DNA of 64,000 nt, from contig CM075988.1 in the NCBI GenBank assembly GCA_038087875.1, forward strand, positions 10,976,001 to 11,040,000, read 5' to 3'. The position numbers and the translations under genes are program-made. Positions 23,874 to 64,000 of this stretch are shown piece by piece. The stretch comes from Malacoraja senta. Its lineage: Eukaryota. The notes beneath the pieces are model-generated. The model saw only the letters and a program-made list of their open reading frames with translations. It was not told the origin of the DNA and made no database searches. Each line of letters starts with the position of its first letter. Positions within the stretch are counted from its first letter, which is position 1.

Positions 23874-24053
23874 AGGGCCTGTCCCACTTGGGCGACATTT
23901 ACGTGTCATGACGCACACGTGATGCGCGCATGGTGCATGGTGACATAGGCAGTGACGCACGGTCGCACGCGGTGCCCCAGGATTTTGGGATTCACAAAAT
24001 CTTCGCCCGCCACCTGCGTGACGCGCAAATGAGGCCCAAGTGGGACAGGCCCT
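23874..24053. mobile_element. PIF/Harbinger-like MITE, 180 bp
   Basis: Perfect 19-bp TIR AGGGCCTGTCCCACTTGGG / CCCAAGTGGGACAGGCCCT, flanked by TAA and TTA. Confidence 0.85.
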
Positions 24054-28320: not shown

Positions 28321-28778
28321 AAACAGAAAAATGTCTCAACGATTTTATATTTAGTGCTTAGGCCTGTTCTGAGTATGAAATGGTGGAGTTATTTGCTGCA
28401 CAATATCTTGATTAGTTATTCTGCCTTGTTGCTTCAGCTTTTTAAAACGTTTGTTTGTTATTGACTTTTCCTTTTTATAATTGGGTATGAGTAAAATAAC
28501 CTCTCTTTGTTGAAAGTAGTTTCATCAAGGTCGAAACCTTGCTGCCATTTGTAGTGTTGAAGAGCTGATGTGTATAAAAAAATATTTGAAGGCACTGTTT
28601 GAGTTTGCAAAAACACAAGGAAGTGTTGATGAAAATGTTCCCTAAATTAGCTACTGAGCCCGCAGGTTTGACTTGCTATTTGTAATTTGAAGGTTGCTTT
28701 ATTGTGGACTCCTAACCCACTACAGAAAGTGCACATGTAGCCTACAGTGATGGTCAAAGCAGCACTAAAGACCTGCTG

Positions 28779-28990
28779 ATAGACACAAAATACTGGAGTA
28801 ACTCAGCGGGACAGGCAGCATCTCTGGAGAAAAGGAATGGGTGATGTTTCGGGTCAAGACCGTTCTTCTTGTCTCGACCCGAAACGTCACCCATCCCTTC
28901 TCTCCAGAGATGCTGCCTGTCCCGCTGAGTTACTCCAGCGTTTTGTGTCTATCTTCAGTTTAAACCAGCATCTGCAGTTCCTTCTCACAC
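28779..28990. mobile_element. Penelope-derived hairpin element
   Basis: ~80-bp inverted arms (tagacacaaaatactggagtaactcagcgggacaggcagcatctctggaga.. / ..tctccagagatgctgcctgtcccgctgagttactccagcgttttgtgtcta). Degenerate flanking repeat actaaagacctgctg / acgaaaggcttgccg. Confidence 0.85.
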
Positions 28991-29139
28991 ACGAAAGGCT
29001 TGCCGCATTGTTAACACCGTCTTTTGAATGAAATGTGCAACTGAACCTCTGGCTTGCGAGATCGGGTGCGGGATAAGATCCATCGGCAATATTTGAATAA
29101 ATACAAAGCGTTATTCCATTAACCTCATCTTCTGCATCC

Positions 29140-29640
29140 AGTGTTCCTGATATCACCTCCTTTCCATCGGCGAGACCAAGTGTAGAGTCAGCATTAGTTT
29201 TGCCAACCGTTTGCTAACCGTTTGAACTCCTCTTCACATTCCCACACTGACCTTTCTGTCCTGGGCCACGTCCAGTGTCAAAGTGAGGGCACATGTAAAC
29301 TGGAGGAACAACACCTCGTATTCTGATAGGTAGCTTACAACTTAACTATATGAACATTGGATTCTCTACTTTTAGCCAACTAACCTAGCAAAAAAACAAC
29401 TCCTCCCCCCCACCTCCCCTTTTCACGCTCTCTTCCCTGTCCCACTTAGATTTGCACCCATTTATCTCCTTTATCTTTTCCCATTCCTTTGGTTTCACAC
29501 TTCTATCCTTATCTCGCTTCTTTTGTCTTTTCATCTTTCCAGCCATCTGCCCATCAGAAAAACAACATATCTGTATCCACCTATCACTCACCAGTCTTTG
29601 TTCTGCCCCTTCTCACTTCAAGTTTTCTCCCCCCCCCACT
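29140..29640 (+). mobile_element. Decayed Penelope GIY-YIG/3' fragment
   Basis: catcggcgagaccaagtgtaga (IGETKCR) and aaactggaggaacaacacctcgtattc (KLEEQHLVF), followed by a pyrimidine-rich spacer. Confidence 0.75.
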
Positions 29641-31876: not shown

Positions 31877-32227
31877 ATGACAATATTGCTCTGACATTAT
31901 TGCACTGTTGTACACATGCCTACATGGTTTAGGGGGATGCATTTAACCATTGTATGCTCTGTTAACTGTGCATCATTTTGAGGCACATTGGCAGTAGAAA
32001 GATATTGCACTAATTGGATGGTCAGATGTTTTTGTTAAACCCTTGTATTGCAAAGGGTGATTAACTGGGCTGAGTTGCTTCAGGTTACTGTCTTCTCAGT
32101 ATTCTATCTCCAGGTTTAATGTTCAAACTGAGCAAATACTTATTTGAAATTTGAGGTTCTCACACCCTGCAAGGTTACACTGTGCTGCAAATATTTAGGG
32201 CCATCGTTTCCAGTTGCTATTGACTAA

Positions 32228-32525
32228 AGGGCCTGTCCCACTATACGAGTTTACCCAAGAGCTCTCCCGAGTTAAAAACAAAAAATCGAACTCGTGGTAA
32301 GTACGTAGCGGGTACGTCGGAGCTCGGGACGTCTCTTAGTGGCTCGTAACACTAACGGCAGGTACTCGGGAAACGCAGTAAGCTCGTGAAGTTTATTCAA
32401 CAGTGTGAAAAATGTCCACGAGAGCCCCGAGTACCTACGAACGGCTATTACCATAATTCTCCAAGTTCGAATCAGGGGAAACTAGGGAGAACGCTTGAAT
32501 TACCTCGTACAGTGGGACAGGCCCT
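32228..32525. mobile_element. PIF/Harbinger-like MITE, ~298 bp
   Basis: TIR AGGGCCTGTCCCACTATACGAG / CTCGTACAGTGGGACAGGCCCT (1 mismatch), flanked by TAA and TTA. Confidence 0.85.
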
Positions 32526-34904
32526 TTAGCATTTTCAATGTTGCAGGTAATGGACCATTGATCTACCCATTGTCCAATTCATTCTGTCTTTCGGCTGTGT
32601 TTCCATTGCTGCTCGTCATTCAGATGGGGAGTTAATTGCTCTGTTAAGAGTCTTCTCATTAAAAGAGAAACTAACATCGCTTTTGATCCTCTTCAGATGG
32701 CCATTAATAGAAATGCGAAACCAAAGAGCATGTATTTGTTGATAAGATAAATGCTGGCTGACATGATAGTATCCTCCATGGAGTCATTTATCAATTGATC
32801 AAATATGCCCAACAGAACAGTGCTTGGGTAAGTAACTTGTGACTGGCTCAATGGTTCAAAGTTTTCAGTGCAACTCATTTAACTATCACCTTCATTTAGA
32901 ATTGACTGCCGTTTATATAATCCCTTGAAGTCACATGAGGATAACTTGTAATTGTATAATGTCTTTCCTACATGCCCTAAGCCACTTTATTAAATGTTTT
33001 TTCTCAACCTCGTCGTGTATGCACAGCAAGTTCACATAAATGCAGTGTGAAACAACCAAATGTCTTGATTGCAGTAATACCACACAGATGCTAAATAAAA
33101 CTCCTTTCAATAAAGAACATGGTTAAGTACAGCACAGGAAGAGGCCCTTCAGCCCACATTTCGGAGTCGGACATTGAGCCGAGATAAATTAATCTCATCA
33201 TGTGATTCGTATCCCTCCATCCCATTATGCTTGGGCAAAGAGTGAAACATCTCTCGCTATACTGGTCTATTTTCATTCCTTCAAATCACAAGGAACAAAA
33301 AACACATTGGGTCATGTTAACACATTACTGAGAAAGAAAATATTGCTAACAGGTTGGACTACACATTACTTCAGAAGTTTAAGCCTGATGTTCAGCAATG
33401 TTTCTGTGTAACAGGATAAGATGCAATGTTTCCACAAGCACTTGTTTCAATGGACTACCATATTTTCCAAGTGGTGACAAAATGAAAATATTATTTATAT
33501 TTCCAGAGGTAAAAAAATTATTGTGATTAACGTTAATGGTTAAGACCGACATTCACCAGCGAGGTTCAGCATGTACAATAAATAAGACGTGCCAATCCTT
33601 TTCATTTGTATTCTGACTTGATTTGTTTCCAAATCGTAACCTTTTTTGACATCACTTCGGCAAAAATGAATACACTCCACATTTAAATGGTTTCTATTGC
33701 AATTTTTGATTGCAATTTTCAAGCCTAATATCTCACTGATGTTGACGGCTTGGGAGTGATTACCTTTTAGTGACATTTAATCTTGGCACTAGTCCATTGG
33801 ATGGTTGACATTGTAATCTGCAACCTGGAAAAAGGAGTCTATATTAGACAGCTTGCCAATAAATTGAAAATTAGTGCCTCTTTGATTTTCATTCTGCAAT
33901 AAATGTCACTGACACATTTATAAAATCATATTTATTAAGCATATTAAAGACACTAGAACACGCAGGAACAGTTCGGCAAAGCCAGACTGCACATTGAAGC
34001 CTGTCCTTCTAATCTCCTCAACTTTCCATAGATTTTGATTTCCACAAGTTTTTGTGTCACTTTTCTCCCCAGAAGCTTTTATTTAACTGTGAATAAAAAC
34101 AGTTCTGTCCTTTATTGTAGTTTGGTCAGCTCATGGTGGCGTGTCTGTTACAAGTGTATGTCAATTAACAAAAATTCGAACTAGACATATCTCAATGGCG
34201 TTGCTGTCTTATTGTCTAGAGGTAATATCCTATGGATATGATATTAAATAGCGACTCGGTTAGATATTTCTGTATGCTTGTGATTTTTCATGCCTTGTAT
34301 TCATTCACTTCATTTGTTGTTTGTTGGACTTTGTATGGCATTTGCTGACATGTTATTTTTTGCCAATGCTGCAAAACTGAATTCCCAAGTGGGTCTATTG
34401 TCTGGGAATACTTTGAGGCATCTTGATATCTGATAGCGCCCAACAAAGTCATTCCTCTTGTGCTTTTACTCTTTCACGTACAAAATGTGTATGACACTGG
34501 GCGGCAGGAAGCATTTAAGAAATGGATAGCTGAGTCAAATGGTCTTTGTCAATCTACATATGTCTTATGACCTTGTTCTTCCAAGCTAACAAAAAGGAGG
34601 AACATGCATCAGCATAGATCTGATTGTTCATCTGAACTGTGGGACCTTTGGGGGGGGGGGGGGTTGTCAGCCCTGGTTTATTTACACTCTAAATCATTAA
34701 TTTTAGATGAAATGCATTCTGAAGGAAGTAATGAGGCAATACATTGCTCTGTTCTGCCTCTTTCTTTCATTTTATTGAATTTATTTTTGTCAGCATTGGA
34801 ATTAAACATTAGTCTTCTCTCTAGATGATGGACCCTGAACATGTATCACCTTTTACCATTAATACATTCCTTCACAACAATTCCTGGCTCCAAAGACTTT
34901 TGAT

Positions 34905-36196: not shown

Positions 36197-36447
36197 AAGA
36201 CACAAAGTGCAGGAGCAACTCAGTTGGGCAGGCTACGTCTCTGGAGAACTTGGAGAGCTGATATTTTAGGTCGAGACTGAAGGAGTCTTCAGATTTTATG
36301 GTCCGAATGAGCCTGAAGAATGGTCTCAACCTGAAACATCAGCCGAGATCTATGTTCTCCAGAGATGCTGTCTGACTTGCTGAGTTCCTCCAGCACGTTG
36401 TGTTGTATTTTGTGCACTAACCAGCATCTGCAGTTCTTTGTTTCTAC
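36197..36447. mobile_element. Penelope-derived hairpin element retaining CTGAAGA..GAAA (36313-36336)
   Basis: Inverted arms. Degenerate flanking repeat cattcatcttgtcaa / cattaatttcatcaa. Confidence 0.75.
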
Positions 36448-37987: not shown

Positions 37988-38267
37988 GTTTAGGTTTAGG
38001 GATACTGCGCGGTAACAGGCCTTTCGGCTCTGCCAACCAACCATACTAACAAAATGCTGCCCCGCACACACAACAATTTACAATTTTACCAAAGCCAATT
38101 AACCTACAAATCTGTACATCTTTGGAGTGTGGGAGGAAACTGGAGCACCCTGAGAAAGCCCATGCAGGTCACGGAGAATGTACAAACCATGTAATGACAG
38201 CACCCATAGTCAGGATTGAACCTGGGTATCTGGCGCTGTAAGGCAGCAACTCTACAGCTGCACCACG
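37988..38267 (-). mobile_element. V-SINE
   Basis: V-domain plus ggattgaacctgggta B box and cagctgcaccacg head. Confidence 0.85.
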
Positions 38268-38610
38268 TTTTAATGTGTTTTTTAAATTTTTATTTATTTA
38301 TTACTTTAACATATTTTTGAAAACACTGAAAAACAATTAGAATATATTAACTCTCTATCAGAGTTATTTAAATCATGTCTAGAAAGTGTATGATAGTTAG
38401 CTAGTTGCCAAAAGCTACTGGGGAGTTCTGGTGTGGCCTCATGTTCTGGTACTTGAGGTCTTGTGTTAGCTTAGAGTAGGAGGTGGGATACACTGCACCA
38501 CTCCCTCCACCTCTCCCTCCACAACCATTTACACAGTAAGTAGGGGCAGATAATGATTGCAGGCTAGAAATCCAGGAAACTAGCTGGGTCCAGGAAAATG
38601 AAATCAGTAA

Positions 38611-39052
38611 AGGGCCTGTCCCACGAGCATGCGGCAGAGCGCACCAAACGGAAGCGGGGCCGGGCGGAGGTCGAGTGATCCCCGTACAGGGCCGGTCCCA
38701 CCAGCATGCGGCAAGCGCGACCAAAACCGGAAGCGGGGGCCGAGTGAGTGACGTGAAGTTCGAGCGAAGTCCACGCGTGATGTACGGCATCAAGACGCTG
38801 CGTACGGCGTCGAGACGCTGCGCACGCCCGTCGAGGCGGTGCGTACGGCGTCGAGGCGGCTGCGGGCTGGCAGGCCGTTGCCACGCGAATTTTTGAACAC
38901 TGTCAGTGTTTCGGAGCCCCGCGTGATGTCGGGACCAGCTCCGCACAACTCCATACGTCTCCGGCGATCGAAGTGGGACCGGCCCCGCGAGGCCGTACGG
39001 CTCAAGCGACCATGTTAGGTCGCGCTTGCCACATGCTCGTGGGACAGGCCCT
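38611..39052. mobile_element. PIF/Harbinger-like MITE, 442 bp, GC-rich, next to an old CR1 3' fragment (~39056-39345)
   Basis: TIR AGGGCCTGTCCCACGAGCATG / CATGCTCGTGGGACAGGCCCT. TAA target duplication at 38608-38610 and 39053-39055. Confidence 0.9.
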
Positions 39053-39824
39053 TAAGCCTCTTGATGGTAGGGGGCAAAGAGTAATGGTGAGAGGAAGGAG
39101 TTTCAAACACCATTTTAGACCAAAGTCTTTGTTGCACAAAGTGATTGATATCTGGAACTCATTGCCAGAGAAGTGGTGGAGTTGATACAATCATTATGTT
39201 TAATAAGCGTTTCGATGGGGTCTTGTATCGGCAATGTATAGAAGGTTGCATGAAAAGTGGATCAGTGTGGATGGGCAAACATTTGGTATGGACATAGTGG
39301 GCTGAAGGACCGATTTCTGTGTGCTATCCAACTTTATGACTGTATAGCATAATCTCGGTGACTGGTTTATCATAAATTGATAGTTAACTCTCAAGCAGTT
39401 ATTTAATCCAGTTTTGTTAAAGTATGCAATGACCCACTTTTGTATTTAAACATATGAAACTGTTTGCGCATGAAATAAATATAACGGAAGCTGATAAATT
39501 CATGGACATTAGATTCAAGCATATAATACACTCAGCAACCCAGTCAGAAAAGTAGAAACCAAAGATCCTTCAAGGCCGATGCTGCCTGACCTGCTGGACA
39601 TTTCCAGTATTTTCTGGTTCTTGTTTTCAGAATTACAAGATTTAGCAGTTTCTTTGATTTCCACAATTTATTTTGCAGCACAAGTCAATCTTAAGATAAA
39701 TTTTATGTTGCTCCCTGACTTTCCAGTAGGGATCATTATGTTTAATTGACACGTAATACAGTAAAACTCTGAAAGTGCAGAACTCCTGGTGAGTTGACAT
39801 CTGGCTCACCGTGTAATGTTCGCT

Positions 39825-40240: not shown

Positions 40241-41732
40241 AACTTTGCATTCACTGGGGGAAACCCCCCCATTATTCTCCTGTGTAACATGTGAGAAAAT
40301 AGTAAGTTAAATGTGGGTGGGAGCTTTGGGGAAAAAAAAATATATAAATAGGAAAATCTAATTGTCCATCACCACCAGAGATCTGAGCATGCTGCATTAC
40401 TGTAAACTACCATTAACATGAGAACCATGGTTAGGTACATCAGCTGTTCGAGTTGACGCCTCCATTTACTGGACTTGAAGCTTATCTACGCTTCACAGTT
40501 CAGTTTCAGTCAGTTTAGTTTATTGTCACGTGTGCCGAGGTACAGTGAAAAGCTTTTGTTGTGTGCTAACCAGTCAGCGGAAAAACAATACATGATTACA
40601 ATCGAACCATTTACAGTGTATAGATACATGATCAGGGAATAACATTAAGTGCAAAGTAAAGCCTGATCAAAGGTAGTCCGAGGGTCACTAATGAGGTGGA
40701 TAGTAGTTCAGGACTGCTTTCTAGTTTAGCCTCTTTATTTCCTTCATGCCAAACCTAACAAAGACTGTCTCTCTCGGTCCTGAAAGCTACAATTATTATG
40801 AGGACTATGAACATTTAACTGCAGATTTGGTTTAGTTCCATGGTTCAGAAGTACATATTAATTAACATGGATGAAAGCCTTTTATTCTAGCTATCAAAAT
40901 CAAGACTATATTAAAACATACAGCAGACGAATCAGCACTTGAAAAGCAAAATGAGTTGTCCTATCCGCCAACACCTTCAGCAATGATGTTAGTTTTAATT
41001 CCGGCAGTTGGGTGTCGACAGTAAACAGTCTTTATTATATTTTTCAGGATGTTGACCTCTGAACTTTCATCCAAGCTGGTTTTGATATTTCCAGCAGGCT
41101 TTGATATCTCCAGCATTTGCAGATTCTCTCTTGCTGTTTTGGGCATATTTCAGACACTGTTAAAGTTCAGTGGTTAAGAGGTTTAGTGAAACGCCACGGG
41201 AGCATTTCCTCTGTATGCGGGTTGTAGCTAAACTGTAAACCTCTTTGTTCTAAATAGCTCTGCAGTTTCACTTTGAGCATCACTCAGAAGAAATCTATTT
41301 CCATTGTGCACTGAAAGCATGCACTCTTCAGTGACACTGGATGAAAGACTGCAAAGGGGACAATGACAGGGTCATAATGTCCAAGTCTTCTGTGATGGGT
41401 ATAAGAGCAGCATCTTTCATAGCATAGGAGTCTAAAGTGGATGAATGTTCACCAGGTTACTGACATTATTAATTGTTCACTTTGTTCACTGGACAAACTT
41501 TCTCTGCTGAATGATGTCACTGCTGAAAATAAAATACCTTTTATCAAGAAGAAATGTTACCATTCTTGAGATTCTCTTTAAAGTCTTTTGAAGTGTGTTG
41601 TCATTATCATTACTTCGTGTGCCTTTTCTGGACTTCAAACAAGCTCATAAGTGCCAGGATAATGGACTATAAACATATATTGTTGTTCAAATGAAACGCA
41701 ACTTTTTCAGTTCAAAACCTTCACTGTAAAAT

Positions 41733-42820
41733 CTCCATCGCAGGTGATAGACTACTGACCGACATCTACTATAAATCCACTGACTCCCATGACTATCTGG
41801 ACTACACTTCTTCCCACCCTGCTTCCTGTAAGGACTCCATCCCCTACTCCCAATTTCTCGGTCTACGCCTCATCTGCACCCAGGATGAGGTGTTCCACAC
41901 CAGGGCATAGGAGATGTCCTCATTCTGCAGGGAATTGGTGTTCCCCACTTCTACTATAGATGAGGCTCTCACCAGGGTCTCTTCTATACCACGTAACTCT
42001 GCTCTCACTCCCCATCCCCCCCACTCGTAACAAAGGCAGAGTCCCCCTTGTCCTCACCTTCCACCCTACCAGCCATCACATACAACAAATAATCCTCCAA
42101 CATTTTCGCCACCTCCAACGGGATCCCACCACTGGCCACATCTTCCCATCTCCTCTCTGCTTTCTGCAGAGACCACCCCCTCCGTAACTCCCTGGTCAAT
42201 TTGTCCCTTCCCACCCAAACCACCCCCTCTCCTGGCACTTTCCCTTGCAACTGCAGGAAATGCTATACTTGTCGCTTTACCTCCCCCCTTGACTCCATTC
42301 AAGGACCCAAGCAGTCTTTCCAGGTGTGGCAGAGGTTCACCTGCACCTCCTCCAACCTCATCCATCGCAGCTGCTCTACATCGGTGAGACTAAGCAGAGG
42401 CTTGGCGATTGCTTCCCCCAACACCTCCACTCGGTTTGCAATAACCAACTTGATCTCGGGGTGGCTCAGCACTTCAACTCTCCCTCCCATTTCAAATCCG
42501 ACCTTTCTGTCCTGGGCCTCCTCCATGGCCAGAGTGAGGCCCACCGTAAATTGGAGGAGCAGCACCTCATATTTCGCTTGGGCAGTGTGCACCCTAGTGG
42601 TATGAACATTGACTTCTCTAATTTCAGGTAGTCTCTGCTTTCTCCTACCTGTCCCAGCTCTCCCTCCGCCCACTGTCTCCGCCTCTTCCTTTCCTCTTCC
42701 CGCCCCCCCCCCCACCCTCACATCAGTCTGAAGAAGGGTCTCGACCCGAAACCTCGCCTATTTCCTTCGCTCCATAGATGCTGCCTCACCCGCTGAGTTT
42801 CTCCAGCATTTTTGTCTACC
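41733..42820 (+). mobile_element. Penelope-like element, 5'-truncated, with frameshifts
   Basis: Homologous to 13441-14936 (RNKGRVPLVLTFHPTS, YIGETKQRLGD, KLEEQHLIFRLG). Flanking repeat GTAAAAT (41726-41732 / 42821-42827). Hammerhead core at 42728-42755. Confidence 0.92.
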
Positions 42821-43109
42821 GTAAAATTTGTAGCGCCTTGTAAAGATTTATAGCTTCTGCATGCGGATACAAAGAACTGCAGATACTGGATTACAAAAAA
42901 AGAGACAAAGTGCCAGAGTAATTCAATGGGTCATGCATCATCTCTGGAGAACATGAATAGGTGATGTTTCACATCAGAAGCATCCCACCAAAAACATCAC
43001 CTATCCATGTACTCCAGAGATGTTGTTTAACCCATGAGTTATTCTTGCACTTTGCAGCTAGAGAACTGTTTATTGTGATCAGAAGTATTTTTTGTAATTT
43101 GAACTAGTT

Positions 43110-43508: not shown

Positions 43509-45207
43509 AGAAACATAGAAACATAGAAATTAGGTGCAGGAGTAGGCCATTCGGCCCTTCGAGCCTGCACCGCCATTCAATATGGTCATGGCTGATCATC
43601 CAACTCAGTATCCCGTACCTGCCTTCTCTCCATACCCTCTGATCCCTTTAGCCACAAGGGCCACATCTAGCTCCCTCTTAAATATAGCCAATGAACTGGC
43701 CTCGACTACCCTCTGTGGCAGAGAGTTCCAGAGATTCACCACTCTCTGTGTGAAAAAAGTTCTTCTCATCTCGGTTTTAAAGGATTTCCCCCTTATCCTT
43801 AAGCTGTGACCCCTTGTCCTGGACTTCCCCAACATCGGGAGCAATCTTCCTGCATCTAGCCTGTCCAACCCCTTAAGAATTTTGTAAGTTTCTATAAGAT
43901 CCCCTCTCAATCTCCTAAATTCTAGTGAGTATAAACCAAGTCTATCCAGTCTTTCTTCATAAGACAGTCCTGACATCCCAGGAATCAGTCTGGTGAACCT
44001 TCTCTGCACTCCCTCTATGGCAATAATGTCCTTCCTCAGATTTGGAGACCAAAACTGTACGCAATACTCCAGGTGTGGTCTCACCAAGACCCTGTACAAC
44101 TGCAGTAGAACCTCCCTGCTCCTATACTCAAATCCTTTTGCTATGAAAGCTAACATACCATTCGCTTTCTTCACTGCCTGCTGCACCTGCATGCCTACTT
44201 TCAATGACTGGTGTACCATGACACCCAGGTCTCGCTGCATCTCCCCTTTTCCTAGTCGGCCACCATTTAGAAAATAGTCTGCTTTCCTGTTTTTGCCACC
44301 AAAATGGATAACCTCACATTTATCCACATTATACTGCATCTGCCAAACATTTGCCCACTCACCCAGCCTATCCAAGTCACCTTGCAGTCTCCTAGCATCC
44401 TCCTCACAGCTAACACTGCCCCCCAGCTTAGTGTCATCCGCAAACTTGGAGATATTGCCTTCAATTCCCTCATCCAGGTCATTAATATATATTGTAAATA
44501 GCTGGGGTCCCAGCACTGAGCCTTGCGGTACCCCACTAGTCACTGCCTGCCATTGTGAAAAGGACCCGTTTACTCCTACTCTTTGCTTCCTGTTTGCCAG
44601 CCAGTTCTCTATCCACATCAATACTGAACCCCCAATGCCATGTGCTTTAAGTTTGTATACTAATCTCTTATGTGGGACCTTGTCGAAAGCCTTCTGGAAG
44701 TCCAGATACACCACATCCACTGGTTCTCCCCTATCCACGCTACTAGTTACATCCTCGAAAAATTCTATAAGATTCGTCAGACATGATTTACCTTTCGTAA
44801 ATCCATGCTGACTTTGTCCAATGATTTCACCACTTTCCAAATGTGCTGCTATCCCATCTTTAATAACCGACTCTAGCAGTTTCCCCACTACCGATGTTAG
44901 ACTAACTGGTCTGTAATTCCCCGTTTTCTCTCTCCCTCCCTTCTTAAAAAGTGGGGTTACGTTTGCTACCCGCCAATCCTCAGGAACTACTCCAGAATCT
45001 AAAGAATTTTGAAAGATTATTACTAATGCATCCACTATTTCTGGAGCTACTTCCTTAAGTACTCTGGGATGCAGCCTATCTGGCCCTGGGGATTTATCGG
45101 CCTTTAATCCATTCAATTTACCCAACACCACTTCCCGACTAACCTGGATTTCACTCAATTCCTCCAACTCCTTTGACCCGCGGTCCCCTGCTATTTCCGG
45201 CAGATTA
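43509..45207 (-). mobile_element. Young 5'-truncated CR1 LINE with an open RT frame
   Basis: (catagaaa)n 3' tail at 43509-43529. The frame is stop-free through GNYRPVSLTS, YLDFQKAFDK, GVPQGSVLGP, KFADD and the C-terminus. Confidence 0.97.
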
Positions 45208-45461
45208 TATATAAAGAACACATTCATATGGAAGGGTCTTGAACAGAAACGTTGACTTCCATTGTCTTCCACAGATGCTGACTGACCCATTGAATTCCCA
45301 TAGCATAGACGCAAAATGCTGGAGTAACTCAGCGGGACAGGCAGCGTCTCTGGAGAGAAGGAATGGTTGACTTTTCGGGTCGAGACATTTCTTCCAACCC
45401 AAAACGTCACCCATTCCTTCTCTCCAGAGATGCTTCCTGTCCCGCTGAGATACTCCAGCAT
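43605..45461 (-). CDS. CR1 ORF2 reverse transcriptase without endonuclease; the N-terminal ~85 codons are non-CR1 flank
   Basis: 618-aa ORF. CR1 similarity starts at about NLPEIAGDRG (~45207). Confidence 0.8.
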   Translation of the reverse strand: MLEYLSGTGSISGEKEWVTFWVGRNVSTRKVNHSFSPETLPVPLSYSSILRLCYGNSMGQSASVEDNGSQRFCSRPFHMNVFFIYNLPEIAGDRGSKELEELSEIQVSREVVLGKLNGLKADKSPGPDRLHPRVLKEVAPEIVDALVIIFQNSLDSGVVPEDWRVANVTPLFKKGGREKTGNYRPVSLTSVVGKLLESVIKDGIAAHLESGEIIGQSQHGFTKGKSCLTNLIEFFEDVTSSVDRGEPVDVVYLDFQKAFDKVPHKRLVYKLKAHGIGGSVLMWIENWLANRKQRVGVNGSFSQWQAVTSGVPQGSVLGPQLFTIYINDLDEGIEGNISKFADDTKLGGSVSCEEDARRLQGDLDRLGEWANVWQMQYNVDKCEVIHFGGKNRKADYFLNGGRLGKGEMQRDLGVMVHQSLKVGMQVQQAVKKANGMLAFIAKGFEYRSREVLLQLYRVLVRPHLEYCVQFWSPNLRKDIIAIEGVQRRFTRLIPGMSGLSYEERLDRLGLYSLEFRRLRGDLIETYKILKGLDRLDAGRLLPMLGKSRTRGHSLRIRGKSFKTEMRRTFFTQRVVNLWNSLPQRVVEASSLAIFKRELDVALVAKGIRGYGEKAGTGY

Positions 45462-46155
45462 TTTGTGTCAATCTCAGATTCAGATTCAGATTCAACTTTA
45501 TTGTCATTGTGCAGTGTACAGTACAGAGACAACGAAATGCAGTTAGCATCTCCCTAGAAGAGCGACATAAATATGAGCAGTAAATATATAAATCTAATAA
45601 TCCTGGTGGGAGGATTGTCCGGGGGGGGGGTGGGGGGGGGGGGTGATTGGCAGTCACCGAGATACAGTGTTGAGTAGTGTAACCGCCGCAGGGAAGAAGC
45701 TGTTCCTGGACCTGCTGGTCCGGCAACGGAGAGACCTGTAGTGCCTCCCGGATGGTAGGAGGGTAAACAGTCTGTGGTTGGGGTGAGAGCAGTCCTTGGC
45801 GATGCTGAGCGCCCTTCGCAGACATCACTTGCTTTGGACAGACTCAATGGTGGGGAGTGAGGAACCGGTGATGCGTTGGGCAATTTTCACCACCCTCTGC
45901 AGTGCTTTCCGGTCGGAGACAGAGCAGTTGCCATAACATACTGTGATGCAGTTGGTAAGGATGCTCTCGATGGTGCAGCGGTAGAAGTTCACCAGAATCT
46001 GAGGAGACAGATGGACCTTCTTTAGTCTCCTCAGGAAGAAGAGACGCTGGTGAGCCTTCTTGACCAGAGTTGAGGTATTGTTGGTCCAAGAGAGGTCATC
46101 GGAGATGCTGGTTCAATCTTTGATTGAAACCAGCATCTGCAGTTCCTTCCTACAC
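45306..46155. mobile_element. Penelope-derived hairpin element split by a Rex1/Babar insertion
   Basis: Hairpin at 45306-45470, with its tail resuming at 46120-46155. Degenerate flanking repeat gaattcccatagca / gaattcctcgagca. Confidence 0.75.
45475..46112 (-). mobile_element. Rex1/Babar-clade LINE 3' fragment
   Basis: Minus strand translates ISDDLSWTNNTSTLVKKAHQRLFFLRRLKK..FYRCTIESILTNCITV..RKALQRVVK..NSFFPAAVTLLN. (TGAATC)n tail. Flanking repeat TCAATCT (45468-45474 / 46113-46119). Confidence 0.9.
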
Positions 46156-48109
46156 AGAATTCCTCGAGCAGTCTGTTTTTTGCTCAGACTCCAGCATCTA
46201 CAGCTTGTGTCTTCCTATCTGGCTTGTTTGTGCTCTATATGAATAATATTTCATTTAATCTGGTGCTAAGTCCATGCAAAGGTCCTTTGAGTTAAGCTTG
46301 TTTCCAGTTAGTGCTAAAGAAAACAGTGACCAACGATCCAGTTTTACCATTGTGCACTCTTGCGAAAATTCATCTTGAGAAACAATGCAATTAGCTTTGT
46401 ATCATGCACCCTCACATGATCCATGATGAGAAGTATTATTATTTTAATTGCTTTCATAGGTGTCCTAATTTTCTAACTTTCTGCTAGATTCTGGTAGACC
46501 TTGGAAGTCTGATTTTTTTTTTTCCACAGCGGATTATCATATTGATTTTTGTTTTTTTGCAAGCGTGGTTTTTGTTTACATGAGTATGAACTGACTTGGA
46601 GAAACAGATGCTGAGGTCTCACTTACTTCCGCAGTGTGCTTTAATTCACAACATGCAAGTATCATTGATGATGAAAACATTTTCAGTTCAATCCCTCAAT
46701 TTCCTTAAGGAGGTGACGGTGAATCATCTTCTGGAACAGTTGAAACACAAGTCACAGAGTCCACAGAAGAGAAACAGGCTCTTCAGCCCAAACTGCCCAC
46801 ACCGACCAACATGTCCCATCTAAACTAGTCCCACCTACCCGCTTTTGGCCCATATCCATCTCGCCCTGTCCTATCCATGTACCTGTCTAAATGTCTTAAA
46901 TGTTGCGATGATACCTTTCTCAACTACCTCCTCCGGCAGCTTGTTCCATACACCCACCACCCTATGTGTGTAAAAAAAAAAGGTACCCCTTAGGCTGTTT
47001 AGCCCAGGTCAAGTACTTCTGAATGCTACTTTCATCCATCAATGATGAAAGAACGACAATATATTCTCAAGTCCAGGTGCCGTGTGGCTTGGAGAATATG
47101 AACGTTGTTGTGTTTCATGTTTAATTGCCCGTGTTATTTTAGATGATCATGGCCACAAATTAGGGAGTTAGCAGGTTACTGCATTTTGCAGATGGTGCTC
47201 ATTAAGTCTACTGCACTGCAATTTTGTAGTGTCACAATCAGGAAGACTGCTTGGTCCTTGGAGTGTTGTTGAAGATGCAGTTGTTCAGACAAGTGGAGAG
47301 AATTCCATTACAATCCTCCAATAAGCGTGGTGGCAAGATTAACAAACACAAGGTGTTAAAAGTAGACCATGGTCGACCTGTGTCGGAATGTTTTATATTT
47401 CTCGTCATTGTTTCTTCTCCCCCTTCTGTGGTGGGGTAGACTGAGACTGACCCACACCCCTCCCCCCACCACCCTCTCCCCACCCCCTCCCTCCTCCCCA
47501 ATCTTTGCACATCCCCAATCCTTTCCACCCATCACTTTAATTTCATGTTTCATGTATTTTGTGTTTTTTATGACTGGGATAAATAAAGTTCTATCGTATT
47601 GTTCTTTCATTTTCTCATGTTAGTTTATTCCAGTTCTCAAAAATACTATCCATCGCATTTCTCCACTCGTTCGCTCGTGTGTCAGATGATGTAGCTCGCT
47701 GTTGGCTTCTGTCGTTGTCCAACATGTTGACAGAATTGGTCACCCGACCTGTCACAGAGTGCATCGTGTCGTCGTTTCCGGGGATCGCCACGAGGAGGCT
47801 TCTGTCATGATCCCCATTTCTCCACTTATTTCCCGTAACCTGCTTCACTTGCCTGCACATCAATTCTTGATTCTTCCACAAATCTTTTAGGACGTAGGAG
47901 GAAATCGGAGCATCCCAGGGTAAAACCTGTGCCGTCAGAGAGAGAATGCGCAAACTCGGATAGTACTGATGATCAGGATCCAACTTGGGTCAGTGGCGCT
48001 GTGAGGGAACGTCACTGCCATCTGCAACACTGCTCTGCACAATGGCACTTAACTACATGTGGTCCTGGTTTTTGTTACATTCAGGCAGAGACTGTGTCAT
48101 GATCTGGTT

Positions 48110-48207: not shown

Positions 48208-49383
48208 TGCGTCATAATCTAGCTGCCACATTATCTGCGGCTGATTTTGAATTTGACATGACTGAGATGTTAAATGTCATAATATTTTGAGTTGAGTGTT
48301 ATCTTTGTTACGATAAGTCATCTTATAATAATGTCCAAAAGGAAGTAAAATTGAAGCCGTTCAAATGTAACAACCCTAATTAGATTATTTGGAGGAAAAA
48401 AAATGGGTGTTTAAAAATACTGCAGCAGGACATTTAACAAACCTAATGTTTGCAAGACATCCATGGGGAGTACAGTGGGTCAAAGAATATTGATTTATTT
48501 TGAAATATATTATCCCTGGAGTGTTTGTTTAATAAGTTTTATGACCTGAGGAGGTATTTTTGCATGTGATTAATTGGCTATTTCAGTAACTCTTTTTGAT
48601 CATCGCATTTCATTCCACGTTATTTTTGAATTCCACGTTAAAATCCTCTACTTTATCCCACAAAAGCAGCACGCTTTAAAATCACAAAAATGAATGTTGG
48701 ATGAACATTTTGCCAAATGAATTATAATAGCTGAAATTAATATTCCATTTATAATCTGGGGAGCTGCCACCTTGGTCTGAATTATGTATTGAATCTGTCT
48801 CCAGAATGGTGTTTGTTGCAAAATAAATTTTAAGCTATGTTCCATCAAAGATGCAGATAACCTATTTTGTCACATCAGGGAATCCAGCGCATGACTGGCA
48901 TAATATTAAAATTGGAACCGGTGAAGTTAGCATGGTATTACAAAGCTTTTTCTCCAATAAACACTCAAGGGAATCTGAAACTTATTCTTTCAAAATGCAC
49001 CAAATGCAGTCAATTGAAAATGTTAATACCTGAGAGATTTTTGCCAGATGAAGTTTATAAGGGATAAATATTGGGCAGAGATGCCGTTCATATGGTAAGC
49101 TGGAATGTACTTGAATTAAGCCTCTTTGGCTGATGTGTCTTTTGCTTGTGGCTTTGACAGTGAATTATTTAGTTTTGACTCTGTGATGATTGTTTTCGCT
49201 GGATTAAAAATTGTGACCTTTATAAATTTCCACATTTTCCTGTGGAAAAACTAAGCACAGCATTAAAGTGAAATCCCAAGTACTGTACCTGAACTAGTCT
49301 TTATTTTTTTGGATAAGACATTAAGCTATTAAACCTTTAGACTTCAGTTGACTTTGGGGTGGCAGGCATAAAACTTTGAGATA

Positions 49384-49586
49384 GACATGAAATGCTGGAG
49401 TAACTAAGTGGGTCATGTAACATTGCTGTAGAACATGGATAGGTGACGTTTCGCATTGGGACCCTTCTTCATATCGAACCAAAACGTCACCTATCCATTT
49501 TCTTCAGAGATGCTGCCTGACCCACTGAGTTACTCCAGCATTTTGTCTATGGCATTAACCAGCATCTGCAGTTCCTTGTTATTACA
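49384..49586. mobile_element. Penelope-derived hairpin element
   Basis: Inverted arms around aggtgacgtt..aacgtcacct. 16-bp flanking repeat ATAAAACTTTGAGATA / ATAAAACATTGAGATA (49368-49383 / 49587-49602). Confidence 0.85.
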
Positions 49587-49945: not shown

Positions 49946-51627
49946 TGTCATCCGGGGAAGATTTACAACTCAAAGAAAACATCTGGGGGAAAAAACACTC
50001 TTCTTTGGTCCAATCCTTATGGTGAAGAGTTTGTCTGCTGTGCTTGCTTGCAATACAACTCTATTTGCCAATGCTTCAGACATACTGTATGGACTATGAG
50101 GCTCTTTCAGGCAATGCAAGTTGACAAATGATACAGTTGATTAGAAAGAGAAGCAGTATTAGGCTACACGCCCCTCTGATCCTGCTTCACTAACTCACTG
50201 AAATCATGTCTGATCCTGTGCCTCATCCACTTTTCATCTGAACACCACATCTTCTGCAAATTCATTGATCCGTGCCCTCAATGTACTCTTTCAGCAGCAC
50301 ATGTTGAGAAGAATTGCAAGGATTTATAACTACTGAACAAAATATTCTTCTTTCTTTGTACCTTAGCATGAGAATGTGCCTCTGAATTATAAAAGTATGA
50401 CAATAACTTTTTTTTAATGCCTTGTACTTTTAATTAAGATTTTATTCCTCGGAAAGTGCGTTACAAGGCACTGAATCTTCAAATATCTAATTTCATGGTA
50501 ATAGTTTTGTTGCATCAAAATAAAATGCCAAGTAATTGCCCTTTGACAAAGGCCGTGGCTGAACTGTTTCCCCTCAATCAAATGAAACATGTGGGAAGGA
50601 GCAGATCATTGAATACTGATGCACCATGAAATGTGAAGTTTTATTGTCTATTCTACACAGGCTGTAGAAATGTCTTTGCCCCAGTTGATTTAACATTTCA
50701 CTTTTTGAGATATCGAGGACATTCACACTTGAATCATCACAATAATGCTGGAATTCTATAAAACCACTCGAGCAGTGCCTTCTGCAAAAAAAAAAAAAAA
50801 ACTTTGTGTCATTGCTCATAATGGCATCGTACTGTAATCTGCCCATTACTTTGTTCTCACCATATCTGATGTGCAATATAGAGGAATCTCTTGCAGTTCT
50901 GTGAAGTTACGTGAACCATGCCAAGCGTGGGGTGGGGTAACGCATAACATTTGGTTTCGTCACAAAACATGCAAGTGCGTTGGTTTTTGTTGAGTACTTA
51001 CCTTTATTTAAGTTGAGATGCAACAGACTGCAAATGGTTGAACCTTGAGAATGCAACAAACTGCTGGAGGAACTCAGAGAGACGGGTATCATCTGCGGAA
51101 GGCAATGGGCAGGCGATGTTTAGGGACAGGACCTTCCTCCGTCAGTCTGAAGAACGGGTTCCAACACAAAATGTCTTCTGTCCATTTCCCGCCACAGATC
51201 CTGCCCGACCCATTGAGTTTCTCCAGCTGCTGGTATTTTGCTGTCTATTAAAGCCATTGATATTGTTTTTGGGGTGTGATTTTTTTAAAATTATTTTTTT
51301 CCCCCCAACTGCACAATGGTTGTATGTACACAGTCTTCTTGAGGGAAAAGTCCAAATACTTTGTAGAAGACCACAGTCAAGATTGGAAAGGATCTGTGAT
51401 AAATGGGCTGTGGGTTAGATCGTAATGCAGGGCACAAAGTGGGGAGCCTTCTGACATTCAGACATTTCCATACCACCATCTATATGAATGGAACTTTTGG
51501 CCACAAGCCGTTTCTGGCTTATTGGGTGAATATAAAAGATCATGTTAACAATGCTGTAAAAATGCAGTTATCCAGCATGTGCTAAGCATGACCAGCATTA
51601 GTTAATTATATACCTTGTTTAATTAGT

Positions 51628-51930
51628 GTTTGTTCAGTTTAGTTTAGAGATGCAGCGCAGAAACAGGCCCTTCAGCCCATCGAGTCCACGACAGCCAGCA
51701 ATCGCCATACACTAGCACTATCCCGTACACTAAGGACAATTTACAATTTTACCAAAGCCAATTAACCTACAAACCTATACGTCTTTGGAATGTGGGAGGA
51801 AACTGGAGCACCCGGAGAAAATCCATGCGGACACAGGGAGAATGTACAAATTCCAAACAGGGCACCCATAGTCAGGATCGTACCTGGATCTATGGCGCTG
51901 TAAGGCAGAACATCTACCACTGTGCCACAC
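51628..51930 (-). mobile_element. Full-length V-SINE
   Basis: (gttta)n tail, V-domain, and head ctaccactgtgccac. Confidence 0.9.
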
Positions 51931-57769: not shown

Positions 57770-59300
57770 GATTTATTATTGTTATGCCTACCAAGATGGA
57801 ATGCAAAATTTTCATTTTGCATGCTATCCAGGTAAATTATTCATTCTGATTGCAGTCAAACTATGCAGAATATATTGTTGCAACTATAAAGCAAGTGCAT
57901 GTGAAAGGAAAAGTCCAAGTGCCGCAGTGAAGTAGACTTGGGAATTCATCCTTGGCGCATGAGTTGAGTTCAAAGGTCTGATAACAGCAGGAAAAGAGCT
58001 GTTCTTGAAACTGGTGCTGTTTTCAAACCTTTGTATCTTCTGCTGGATGGGAGAGGGGAGAAGAAAGAATGCCCATGGTGTGAACAGTCTTTGATTATTT
58101 TTGTTGTTTTCTTGAGGGAGCCTGAAGTATAGATGAAGTCATCAGGAAGGAGGCTGGTTTGATGATGAACTGAGCTATATCCACAACTCTATAGTTTCTG
58201 GCAGTCTTGGACAGAGCAGTTGCCATACCAATCTATGATGCATCTCTATAGGATGCTTTCTGTGGTGCATCTGTAAAAATTGGCAAGAGTCATTGGAGGG
58301 GTTTGTGTTCTTTCCAGGCCTTAGTGTCCATGTATTTGGTCCGGGGCAAATTGTTGGTGATGCTCACACCTCAGAGCTTGAAACTCTAAATCATCTCCAC
58401 CTCTGCACCAGTGATGCAACTAGGAGATAGACTCCACCCTACTTTCTGAAATCATGGAAGAAGGGTCTCGACCAGAAACGTCACCCATTCCTTCTCTCTG
58501 GCGGTACTGCCTGTCCCGCTGAGTTACTCCAGCTTTTTGTGTTATCTTCAAGTTCTTCTTTCTTGCTAACATCCAGGGAGAGTTTGTTGCCTCCGTCCTG
58601 TACTCTGTCCCTGTACATGGTTTGAGATCCGGCTCTTTACAGTGGTGTCTTTTTCACACAGAGAGTTGTGAGTCTGTGGAATTTTCTGCCTCAGAGGGCA
58701 GTGGAGACCAGTTATCTGGATACTTTCAAGAGAGAGCTTGATAGGGCTCTTAAAGACAGCAGAGTCAGGGGATATGGGGAGAAGGCAGCAATGGGGTACT
58801 GATTGTGGACGATCAGACATGATCACATTGAATGGCAGTGCTGGCTCGAAGGGCCGAATGACCTACTCCTGCACCTATTGTCTATTGTCACCTGCAAACT
58901 TATAAATGGAAGATAGACACAAAAAGCTGGATTAAGTTAGGAGAGAAGGAATCTGAAGAAGGGTCTCGACCCGAAACGTCACCCATTCCTTCTCATCAGA
59001 GATGCTGCCTGGCCCACTGAGTTACTCCAGCTTTTTAAACCAGCATCTGCAATTCCTTCCTACACACCCTATAAATCGAGTTGGCTGTATCGTCGTTAGT
59101 GTGCAGAGAGTAAGGCAAGGGGCTGAGAACACAGCGTTACAGGGCATCTGTGTTGGGTATTATTGTGGAGGCTGTTTTGTTGCTTATCCTTAATGATTGT
59201 GATCTATGGACCAGGAAGTCAAGGATATAATTGCAGAGGGGGTTGCAGTGTTCTGCATCCAGGAGTTTTAAGATGTATTTTGATTTAAATCTATGTTGAA
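57770..59300 (-). mobile_element. Rex1/Babar-like LINE fragment carrying three later insertions
   Basis: Minus strand reads CVLSPLPYSLHTND..SIYKFAGD across 58886-59150. Inserts are a Penelope half-repeat (~58456-58550), a plus-strand CR1 tail (~58640-58888) and a hairpin element (~58911-59066). Confidence 0.7.
58953..58983 (+). ncRNA. Minimal type-I hammerhead ribozyme motif, most canonical copy in the window
   Basis: CUGAAGA(58953-58959)-A-GGGU(CUCG)ACCC-GAAA(58973-58976)-C-GUC(58978-58980). Predicted cleavage is after C58980. Confidence 0.8.
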
Positions 59301-60780: not shown

Positions 60781-60795
60781 GCACTTGGATTGTAA

Positions 60796-61385
60796 AAAAG
60801 AACTGCCGATGCTGGTTTAAACTGAAGATAGACACGAAAAGCTGGAGTAACTCAGTGGGACAGGCCGCATCTCTGTTGAGAAGGAATGGGTGATGTTTCG
60901 GGTCGAGACCCTTCTTCAGACTGGTTAGGGATAAGGGAAACGAGAGATATAGACGATGATATGGAGAGATAATGAATGAAAGATATGCAAAAAAGTAACA
61001 ATGATAAAGGAAACAGGCCATTGTAAACTGTAGGGTGAAAACGAGAAGCTAGTGCAACTTGGGTGGGGGGTGGGGGGGGGCGATAGAGAGAGGGAATGCC
61101 GGGACTACCTGAAGTGAGAGAAATCAATATTCATACCACTAGGCTGTAAGCTGCCCAAGCGAAATATGAGATGTTATTCCTCCAATTTGCATTTAGCCTC
61201 ACTCTGACAATGGTGGAGACTGAGGACAGAAAGGTCTGTAGGAAGGGGAAGGATAATTAAAGTGTCCAGCAACAGGGAGATCAGGTTGGTTCAGGCGGGC
61301 TGAGCGAAGGTGATCCACAAAACGATCGTCCAGTCTGCGTTTGATCTCGCCGATGTACAGAGTCCATATCTTGAACAACGGACAC
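60796..61385 (-). mobile_element. Penelope-like 3' fragment with terminal repeat and hammerhead motif (60892-60919)
   Basis: ORF 61199-61432 reads LYIGEIKRRLDDRFVDHLRS..PDLPVAGHFN. Minus strand has CUGAAGAAGGGUCUCGACCCGAAACAUC. Confidence 0.88.
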
Positions 61386-61424
61386 AAACCAATTGATACG
61401 TTTAATAGGGAAGGTTTCCGACTG

Positions 61425-61587
61425 ATAGACACAAAAAGTTAGAATAACTCAGCTGGTCAGAAGAAGGGTCTCGACCCGAAACGTTACCTATTTCTTTTCT
61501 CCAGGATGCTGTCTGACCCGCTGAGTTATTCCAGCTTTTTGTGTTTATCTTTGGTTTAAACCAGCATCTGCAGTTCATTCCTCCACA
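61425..61587. mobile_element. Internally deleted Penelope-derived hairpin element
   Basis: Flanked by AAGGTTTCCGACTG (61411-61424) and AAGGTTTCCAACTG (61589-61602). Confidence 0.8.
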
Positions 61588-61604
61588 TAAGGTTTCCAAC
61601 TGTT

Positions 61605-61836
61605 AAAGAAGGAACTGCAGATGCTGGAAAATCGAAGGTACACAAAAATGCTGGAGAAACTCAGCGGGTGCAGCAGCATCTATGGAGCGAAGGAAATAGG
61701 TAACGTTTCGGGCCGAAACCCTTCTTCAACCCTTCCCTTCAGTTTGAAGAAGGGTTTCGACCCGAAACGTTACCTATTTCCTTCGCTCCATAGATGCTGC
61801 TGCACCCGCTGAGTTTCTCCAGCATTTTTGTGTACC
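61605..61836. mobile_element. Very young Penelope-derived hairpin element
   Basis: 94-bp inverted arms (61636-61729 / 61744-61837, 1 mismatch). Exact 17-bp flanking repeat TAAGGTTTCCAACTGTT (61588-61604 / 61837-61853). Confidence 0.92.
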
Positions 61837-64000
61837 TAAGGTTTCCAACTGTTTGGCTTGGATAAGTCTGGGTGAATAGCATGTTTCCTGCTGTATGTAT
61901 GGATTCTATGCCTGTGGTGGCTGGAGGTCAGTTATCCCAGCTCGAGAAAAGCACTTGGAGTTCTTCGGGGCAATGTCCTCTTCCTAATTATCTTAATTTG
62001 TGGCCTGCCAAAAACCTACAGGTAAAATATAAAATCATTGAATGCAGCAAAAGTCTTGTATCTCCCTCAAACTAATTTTACCTTTTTGAAATATTTGACT
62101 TAAACTTGATTAATATTTAATCAAACATAACAGTGGAGTAAAATGATTACTTTCTGTTTGATTGCAAGGACGATTGATGGTAACGGTGAACAGAATTCAT
62201 CAGGAAAGATTTAATATCAAAGTACATCTTTTTTTCCTTGGGTAACTTTACCTTTCTTGGTACAAATTGTCACTGCAGTTTGGATTGGTGCAGTGAAGGA
62301 ACATCATGTACCATAATTACGTTGATTAAGGCAGATCTGTCATGCTTAAGTACGGTGATAGTTTTACTGTTTTAAGACCACAGAAAATTGCACATACAGC
62401 CAATGACCGATGGTCTGTTGGGAGTTGTCAGTATCTCAGCAGAAACCGATTTGATGAACTTGCGGTGACTTTGCAGTATTAACAAAGCTGAGCTGACTCT
62501 TTGAAGTGAGAAAAGGGACCAACTGAGCTCTGCATTCCGTATCCCACTAGGTCATGCATGCAACTGATAGCAACACAGAACGCTGCCCTTTACGAACTTT
62601 ATACATATTTCCTTTGGGCAGCTTATAACCCTGTGGGCTTGATTTCTCTGATTTCAAGTAACCACTGTATTCCCCCTCCGCCCCTCTCTGCCCCTCCCCC
62701 CACCCTAGTAGTCCTACTAGTTCTCATCCATATAACCCTTCGTTATCACCTCTTCCACAGCCAGCTATGGACCATTGTGGGCTCTACCTTTCCTTGGTCA
62801 TCGGTGCCGCCTCTGAACATGCAAACTCTGCGCAGACAGTACTGGTGATCAGGATCGAACCCAGGTCTCTGGTGCTGAGAGGCAGCAGCTCGACTAACTG
62901 CTCCATTGGTCCTCAAGGTTGGTTGGCCATTGGCAGATGTGCCGAGATAGTTTTGTTTTATGCACTATCCATTCAAGCTATACCGTACAATCGAGGAATA
63001 CACGTTCAACAGGCAGAGCAAAGTGAAAAATAACCAGTGTAGAATGTAGTGCTGCACCATTACTGTGTTACAGAGAAAGGGAAGTTAAGAAAAACCTGCA
63101 AGGGCTGCAATAAGGTTGGTTCATGGGCAACCTTGTATGCATTCATGGTCACCATCTCCTTGTGTACCACATACTTGCTGGTCATTTCAATCTATCATCT
63201 TCACCATGTTGTTCCTAATCCTTGGTTCTCCCACAATCTTCCCACAGCAGCTTCACGCCAAAGCTCTCAGCCAATACAATGTCTGTAGATGCTTTGGTTT
63301 TGTGACTTACCAATTCAAGGAGGTGAAGAACTGCTCCCAGTCAGGTGTTTGTGCTGAAAATGGTCACCTCTCGAGTAAAGTACAGTGGTTGTACTTTCAA
63401 CATGCTGAGGTCATGATGATGGACATAATTCATATAGGTACCCTGTTACTTTATAGAGAGCAGAAATTAATTACTATAGTCTTATTTGCACTTCACTTGC
63501 TCGAAGAAGCCTTGAGAATGCAATCAATAAAGGGCGGAACAAAATTACAGTCTCCTTATTGAACTGCTTGTTGTCGATGGCATTTAGCAATTTCCGTTCC
63601 TCATTTGGATCCATAACTGTTGCCCAAAACAAGTCGGGGAGCCAATTAACACAATTCTCAATCGAATGCAACATTTAATGTTTGCATAAGCTGTGTCTTG
63701 TCGCAAGAAATATATACAGTTCATCTCTGCATCATTTAGGAATGGCTTTTAGATGAAAGCAAAACCGCCTTCGTGCTCCTTACATCTATTTCATTTAATT
63801 CAATTTTAAGAATGCTATTGTGCTTCAACTTTGAAGCAATCAGGTGCCTGGTTATCGGCAGCTCCCAGCACATTTATTTTGGCAGCGTTGCATCTTTTTT
63901 CACACTGCTCCTGTTTAACTTGGAATTGATGCTGCTTTTTTCAGTTTGCATACTCATTCCTTGGCACGGTGTGATTCATAGGGAATCCTTCATAGTTTTG

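Follow-up and report, generated by a model that had tools for sequence, protein, structure and literature searches.

Penelope-like elements (PLEs) leave insertions of a recurrent form. As described in the accessible text of the papers concerned, such an insertion contains an inverted, 5′-truncated copy and a tail of 30–40 bp that is often present at one end only, and in the rotifer examples it is flanked by target site duplications (TSDs) of 8–10 bp (PMC3846280, PMC8557442); the same pattern of inverted copy, tail and TSD is also found in PMC8969392. The formation of the inverted repeat and of the tail is still called undefined in PMC8557442. The protein of an anole PLE, Poseidon_Ac (PAc) of Anolis, cuts and extends both target strands, starts reverse transcription at two internal sites, one at either edge of the tail, requires RNA downstream of these sites and can dispense with hammerhead cleavage; inverted products and a one-tail rule are absent from the model in the accessible parts of that paper (Frangieh 2024, PMC11167929).

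Non-autonomous PLE derivatives are also known (PMC8557442; bioRxiv 10.64898/2026.07.22.740005). Non-LTR retrozymes are short, non-coding and pLTR-derived, with a type I minimal hammerhead ancestry, and their units, each with its own hammerhead, follow one another head to tail in tandem (bioRxiv 10.64898/2026.07.22.740005; PMC4209133, as far as their accessible text goes). In the accessible part of PMC4209133, a spliceosomal intron of the D. virilis Penelope element is reported to end at the hammerhead, and hammerhead pairs on opposite strands, 100–700 bp apart, are reported from Schistosoma. In the literature, which was covered in part and with few subscription papers, we found neither ORF-less PLE hairpins in cartilaginous fish nor twin priming for PLEs, and the accessible part of PMC6155905 adds nothing on sharks.

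The locus compared here with these systems is a 232-bp insert at 61605–61836 of the window, i.e., the whole 64-kb stretch of DNA that was analysed. It is confirmed as a real insertion and is bracketed by an exact 17-bp direct repeat (61588–61604 and 61837–61853) that scores 17, against a best score of 8.5 among 130 controls with mismatched flanks. Its arms, 61636–61728 and 61745–61837, are identical at 92 of 93 positions (1/93 mismatch), and its left arm (61637–61728) is identical at 92 of 92 positions to 13440–13531 of an ORF-bearing PLE. An earlier note on this DNA had reported the 232-bp insert, its near-perfect inverted arms, the match to 13441–13531 and the exact 17-bp duplication, all of which are borne out. 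The parts of the insert and its flanks, with the strand where one applies, are the following.

61588–61604: left TSD of 17 bp, its final 4 nt common with the tail end, hence 13–17 bp
61605–61635, minus strand: PLE tail on this arm only; matches other tails of the window, absent at 13441 and 61836
61636–61728, minus strand: tailed pLTR arm, 5′-truncated at U4 of the hammerhead core; 92/92 to 13440–13531
61729–61744: junction of 16 nt, unique among the hairpins of the window; crossed by 0 of 32 listed contig pieces (61729–61740)
61745–61836, plus strand: tail-less pLTR arm with T at C3; differs from the left arm only at 61760
61837–61853: right TSD; the flank contigs of organisms B and C (see below) start to fit exactly here

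The insert is asymmetric, a feature overlooked in the earlier note: only the left arm carries the PLE tail (61605–61635), 31 nt by which it outruns both the right arm and the 13441 copy. Loose contig ends accumulate at 61601 in all four runs described below, which gives a family tail of about 35 nt. Its last 4 nt overlap the left TSD at its end, so that the true TSD is 13–17 bp, and a microhomology at the priming site is possible. The junction can be read either as upstream sequence rich in pyrimidines or as a repeat of the end of the left arm produced by slippage, and both states of the single inter-arm difference at 61760 are present among other copies of the window.

Three PLE copies with coding sequence, the first of the likely parent subfamily, are the following.

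13441–14936, minus strand: young 5′-truncated PLE, likely parent subfamily; 429 open codons (RT with YIDD, CX4CxxC linker, GIY-YIG), 3′ UTR, pLTR, core at 13532, no tail, 9-bp TSD
41725–42820, plus strand: second truncated PLE with ORF, tail-less; 7-bp flanking repeat
60791–61372, minus strand: PLE 3′ fragment of an older subfamily with ORF end, UTR, pLTR and tail

In the last of these, the ORF end is followed by a tail, showing that a tail can also lie behind an ORF. The GIY-YIG match of the parent (E=4e-4) lies just below the Pfam cut-off; longer relatives of its ORF, with up to 55% identity over 99%, contain an RT and often a GIY-YIG domain. The CX4CxxC linker stands at residue 296 of the 429-aa fragment. 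A CX2-5CxxC linker between RT and EN is given for the Neptune and Nematis clades, and not for Penelope/Poseidon, in the accessible text of PMC8557442, and would by its sequence mark the parent as a PLE of Neptune or Nematis type, whereas the in vitro work on PAc concerns an element of the Penelope/Poseidon clade (PMC11167929). Read through pLTR and tail, one frame stays open for 23 codons, like that described in rotifer PLEs; a comparison by eye of this putatively coding frame with the N-termini of 10 relatives gave no clear match. With its RT and GIY-YIG parent, inverted copy and one tail, the focal hairpin is an insertion of the EN+ PLE kind. The hairpins of the window, of which it is one, share the head-to-head arrangement, the single tail, the variable TSD and the pLTR hammerhead motif with the inverted-pLTR insertions described in the accessible text of Arkhipova 2013 (PMC3846280) and Craig 2021 (PMC8557442). 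They differ from these in that both copies are of pLTR length, no ORF lies between the copies, and the TSDs measure 13–17 bp rather than 8–10 bp.

The focal insert is one of twelve two-armed hairpins of the window (4111, 7110, 19405, 28778, 36197, 42871, 45305, 49379, 51060, 58910, 61425 and 61605). The earlier note had listed 12 other sites as related hairpins or half-hairpins; 11 of these are two-armed, and 48110 is a single arm. The eleven are given below, with arm starts counted from C3 of the core in the order tail-less/tailed.

4111–4306: old hairpin, TSD 11/14
7109–7240: old hairpin without recoverable TSD, its junction lying downstream of the hammerhead
19404–19866: old hairpin, split by another repeat (~19463–19690), no TSD recovered
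28778–28990: hairpin, tail-less arm extending further 5′ (+2/+10), TSD 11/14
36197–36447: old hairpin, weak TSD (p=0.09)
42867–43057: old hairpin, tail on the left side, no TSD recovered
45305–46158: hairpin, +2/+16, tail pushed to 46113–46158 by other sequence, TSD 11/14
49380–49586: hairpin, +1/about +15, TSD 15/16
51021–51245: old hairpin, tail on the left side, arms overlapping at a near-palindrome just upstream of the hammerhead core
58910–59066: hairpin, tail-less arm very short, tailed arm with intact hammerhead core, TSD 9/10 or longer
61425–61587: older hairpin, 37-nt tail-less arm and tailed arm, TSD 61411–61424 / 61589–61602; present in organisms B and C

All twelve are head-to-head, with a 5′-truncated inverted copy, and each has one tailed and one tail-less arm; their tails measure 31–35 nt, within the published 30–40 bp. 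The TSDs were assessed by a boundary-anchored permutation against 130 mismatched flank pairs, which replaced a looser search with a high background (46 of 300 random pairs scored at least 8). By this test, seven of the twelve hairpins have a TSD at empirical p<0.05 (4111, 28778, 45305, 49379, 58910, 61425 and 61605), 36197 reaches p=0.09, and four old hairpins have no recoverable TSD. The 15/16 flanking repeat that the earlier note had given as an example is recovered at 49380–49586.

Two insertions into or beside the element's own repeats were observed. The TSD of the young focal hairpin (61588–61604 and 61837–61853) falls on the right-hand TSD of the older 61425 hairpin, whose left copy is at 61411–61424; apparently, the same target position was cut twice, directly beside an existing tail. 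With copies so dense, the double hit could be due to chance; alternatively, the endonuclease could favour DNA next to a tail. The 45305 hairpin is nested in an older pLTR arm (45231–45300 and 46158–46200), again an insertion into the element's own repeat. Other repeats of the window include a family of MITE-like appearance whose terminal inverted repeats are symmetric and whose ends are rich in T/A (23871–24056, 32224–32529, 38608–39055 and 54359). A LINE RT frame, which is presumably CR1-like, lies on the minus strand at 43605–45467 (620 open codons; Pfam RVT_1, E=3e-33) and has many fragments elsewhere in the window. Another abundant interspersed repeat of 200–300 bp, which we take to be SINE-like, is found at 3547–3779, 6666–6920, 7783–8099, 15280–15579, 16858–17183, 38073–38266 and 51623–51928.

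The junctions differ in all twelve hairpins, including 28778 and 45305, which belong to the same subfamily. Besides the arm starts given above, those of 19405 are −3/about +12, those of 61425 +56/−2, those of 51060 −5/−5, and those of the focal insert +1/+1 with a 16-nt filler; the 5′ ends were taken from alignment, with those of 7110, 36197, 58910 and 61605 set by eye. Among these hairpins, the longer arm bears the tail in some cases and the shorter arm in others. Differing junctions in old copies could in part postdate insertion, since the centres of DNA palindromes erode. A nearest-neighbour comparison of the arms of old copies placed the own partner first in three of nine cases and tied in two more, and is uninformative for those copies.

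Hairpins occur at about 1 per 5 kb (12 in 64 kb), and the window holds 40 pLTR-like segments spanning 3,518 bp (~5.5%) versus 5 ORF fragments. Single arms with TSDs are found at 11827, 12669 and 13130, and ORF-bearing stubs at 13441, 42820, 57609 and 60794, in addition to the fragment 29115–29323. Hairpins, TSD-flanked single arms and ORF-bearing stubs form a continuum. Tandem arrays are absent, and the arm patterns gave 0 matches in viral contigs and metagenome contigs. For 60900–63000, no RNA data set was listed, which carries no information on expression.

The one-tail anatomy recurs in a related PLE family. From 156 metagenome loci with relatives of the ORF, the best 80, which come mostly from one assembly, were considered, and 35 of these have a hammerhead-like motif; the related family has 43–65% amino acid identity to the parent ORF in the best segments. 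In the dominant family, most of the 70 3′ ends belong to one of two groups that lie ~55 nt apart; the tail is ~55 nt. Thirteen loci hold both ends head-to-head, and the two that are cut by contig ends were left out. The 11 resolvable insertions, which surround ORF-bearing copies, all have exactly one tail, and 10 of them have TSDs of 10–21 bp by script (L041 has 13 bp by eye). Their inverted arms range from ~100 to ~590 bp, and two end 2 nt before C3, like arms of the window. Five have the tail on the longer, ORF-bearing arm and six on the shorter inverted arm, which means that neither arm is in every case copied from the other. Across 9 loci, the arms of one insertion have 10 shared departures from the family majority, whereas 4.25 are expected across loci, suggesting that both arms come from one source lineage. 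Taken with the 12 hairpins of the window, mixed pairs of a tailed and a tail-less arm make up 23 of 23, for which p is ~1e-7 under an independent 50:50 choice. L003, L006, L012, L070, L072 and L073 are clean, young PLE insertions of invertebrate type, with inverted arm, 55-nt tail and 10–21-bp TSD, and make a good reference set for the anatomy of PLE integration.

Contigs from four runs, X1 and X2 (organism A), X3 (organism B) and X4 (organism C), were aligned to 61320–62040; X1 and X2 belong to one study, possibly of the same source as the window, and are thus not independent. The right-flank contig of X1 and X2 enters the arm with no mismatch and reaches 61816 and 61815, respectively. That of X3 and X4 fits from exactly 61837, with the 23 preceding letters unaligned. 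These contig break points, next to another repeat, hint that the focal insert is missing from the two related organisms B and C, as it appears to be. The contigs of X3 and X4 cross the junction of the older 61425 hairpin, which shows that this hairpin predates the split. Young-subfamily variants are commoner in organism A, in which the window base at 61701 accounts for ~17–32% of the depth, versus 3–6% in B and C.

Summed arm depth is 1e6–1e7, versus a flank depth of 2–23; in the loop bin 61720–61744, depth mixes arm and loop positions. The best 15 joints reach a depth of 582 at most, with 1,419 further joints, and no hairpin junction dominates in the four runs, counting being incomplete in three of them. 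After 61728, 95–140 contigs in each of three runs carry element sequence instead of the focal loop, and contigs ending at 61728 continue for ~7 nt in element sequence and then diverge. A joint of 61670 to 61794 has a depth of 492 in X2, well above single-copy, and a joint of 61670 to 61792 has depths of 158, 12 and 316 in X2, X3 and X4, respectively. A minor amplified hairpin lineage, a microhomology hot spot or a passenger in another repeat are possible origins of these multi-copy joints, and joints of old to young elements can arise by chance at this copy density. In addition, a joint of 61456 to 61609 on opposite strands connects a tail end to a pLTR start in 10–19 contigs per run at low depth; these appear to be minimal head-to-tail pairs, a retrozyme-like arrangement.

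The earlier note had called the hairpins hammerhead-bearing, which overstates the case. The window has five complete hammerhead cores, and CUGAnGA plus GAAA are kept in only 2 of the 24 hairpin arms; C3 is missing from both focal arms, the left being cut at U4 and the right having T. The predicted hammerhead at 13532 has the core, an extra base before stem II, a G-C first pair and a palindromic CG, matching features of the minimal type I hammerhead in the accessible text of PMC4209133, and a stem I of only ~2 bp. Rfam at gathering threshold gave 0 matches in the window, and unconstrained folding did not yield the hammerhead fold. The 5′ ends of 20 of the 24 arms fall between about −7 and +22 of the core, most of them in the sequence just upstream of it (13532–13560 on the minus strand, and equivalents), and the single arms at 11827, 13130, 48110 and 58457 also end within ~25 nt of the core. 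This clustering at the hammerhead boundary is more than random truncation explains. RNA 5′-end run-off, a splice-acceptor-like boundary and RT stalling are candidate causes. The boundary resembles both an initiator-like motif and a pyrimidine tract plus AG.

Twelve hairpins of this genome were read as sequence. Each consists of two head-to-head, 5′-truncated PLE 3′ ends, one of them tailed, and was probably built at the insertion, with no hairpin master. That the hairpins arise de novo at each insertion is likely. A GIY-YIG endonuclease would nick both target strands ~13–17 nt apart. Each 3′-OH would then prime a cDNA, with the tail-end start site used for one and the tail-less start site for the other, the template of both probably being RNA from one source copy. 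Both cDNAs would stop early, mostly near the 5′ boundary of the hammerhead, and their ends would be joined via microhomology or a short filler and then repaired. One long cDNA would give the familiar ORF-bearing PLE with inverted pLTR, and two short ones a hairpin. Hairpin copies would be dead on arrival: if the family behaves like PAc, they lack the downstream RNA that PAc needs and would not move further. L1 elements provide a precedent in twin priming, in which a nick in the second strand primes a second cDNA and yields an inversion within one TSD; the internal site of the second priming varies, and there is no overlap of the arms. In contrast, the arms here would start at two fixed sites 31–55 nt apart and duplicate the same sequence.

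Given de novo formation, two primings are somewhat favoured over a snap-back at integration with trimming, in which the first cDNA or an antisense RNA folds at a small palindrome and primes itself, the endonuclease then trimming one tail. Self-priming on an antisense template is proposed in the accessible discussion of PMC3846280, and an EN-mediated resolution for the tail in that of PMC8557442; private variants are common to the arms of one insertion, and some junctions lie at palindromes or overlaps (51060, 61425). However, without trimming, snap-back predicts a tail that is always on the same (longer or shorter) arm, whereas the related family has a split of 5 versus 6 and both polarities occur in the window. 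Both ends are, moreover, RT start sites in vitro in the accessible text of PMC11167929, and the focal arms differ at 61760, with both states in other window copies, which counts weakly against self-copying. We regard snap-back as rather unlikely. A short template, with reverse transcription of a 5′ mRNA leader, or of a transcribed solo pLTR plus tail, running off the RNA 5′ end near the hammerhead, is doubtful but a little less so; in the solo-pLTR case, the replicating unit would be a SINE-like single-arm RNA rather than a hairpin. The clustered 5′ ends of the 24 arms and of several single arms, the ~7 nt of element sequence beyond 61728 before contigs diverge, the presumed initiator-like motif and the excess of pLTR segments over ORF fragments all fit it. 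There are, however, long templates as well, since the tailed copies 22177, 35101 and 60794 reach the 3′ UTR or ORF; the boundary can also be taken for a pyrimidine tract plus AG, the RT could simply stall at structure, and the young arms are identical to the ORF-bearing copy.

The headline of the earlier note was a self-propagating, non-autonomous SINE- or retrozyme-like family, with hairpins copied as units by the PLE enzyme. Such a family would account for the abundance (12 in 64 kb), for the similar sizes of 28778, 45305 and 49379, and for the few arm-to-arm joints at multi-copy contig depth, and known non-autonomous PLE derivatives are a precedent. It is nevertheless very unlikely, because all junctions differ, even within a subfamily, no joint dominates (counting incomplete in three of four runs), the core is usually cut off and tandem arrays are absent. 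Moreover, the same one-tail inverted anatomy surrounds ORF-bearing related copies and is already published for PLEs. The hairpins resemble non-LTR retrozymes in being short, non-coding and pLTR-derived, with a type I minimal hammerhead ancestry, but do not fit their definition: they are head-to-head with the core in 2 of 24 arms, whereas the units of a retrozyme repeat head to tail, each with a complete hammerhead (bioRxiv 10.64898/2026.07.22.740005, accessible text); nor, with twelve different junctions and no dominant joint in the incomplete counts, do they look like a SINE-like master family. A MITE moved by a DNA transposase, suggested by the short, non-coding form and the inverted arms, is refuted for practical purposes. 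The ends are asymmetric, with a tail on one side instead of symmetric termini, the TSDs, instead of being short and fixed, are long and differ from copy to copy in length and sequence, the arms equal the 3′ end of a retroelement, and the separate inverted-repeat family with symmetric termini shows what looks MITE-like in this window. Derivation from the PLE terminal repeat, and target-primed retrotransposition instead of a MITE in view of the long variable TSDs, had both been put forward in the earlier note and are supported; its fallback, a very frequent abortive integration product formed independently at each site, fits the twelve different junctions.

The hairpins of two head-to-head PLE 3′ ends are thus best read as the shortest form of the published PLE insertion pattern, abundant and ordinary, and as probably formed anew at each site. 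For annotation, it matters that pLTR stubs, which make up ~5.5% of the window, can pass for MITEs or SINEs. For the mechanism, the one-tail rule, which holds in 23 of 23 cases whether the tailed arm is the longer or the shorter, sets a tight limit that could be tested in the existing in vitro system; together with the clustering of 5′ ends, it constrains the mechanism of PLE integration. Tentatively, and with less than even confidence, we suggest that PLE inversion may be an obligately asymmetric twin priming, in which one enzyme dimer uses the tail-end site on one strand and the tail-less site on the other with a single RNA, that priming may occur in a short 5′ mRNA leader with both cDNAs running off the 5′ end, and that the minimal product of such priming may be preserved in this genome in a vast number of fossil copies. 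If true, asymmetric twin priming would account in a single model for the inverted pLTR, for the tail on one side only and for the surplus of solo pLTRs.
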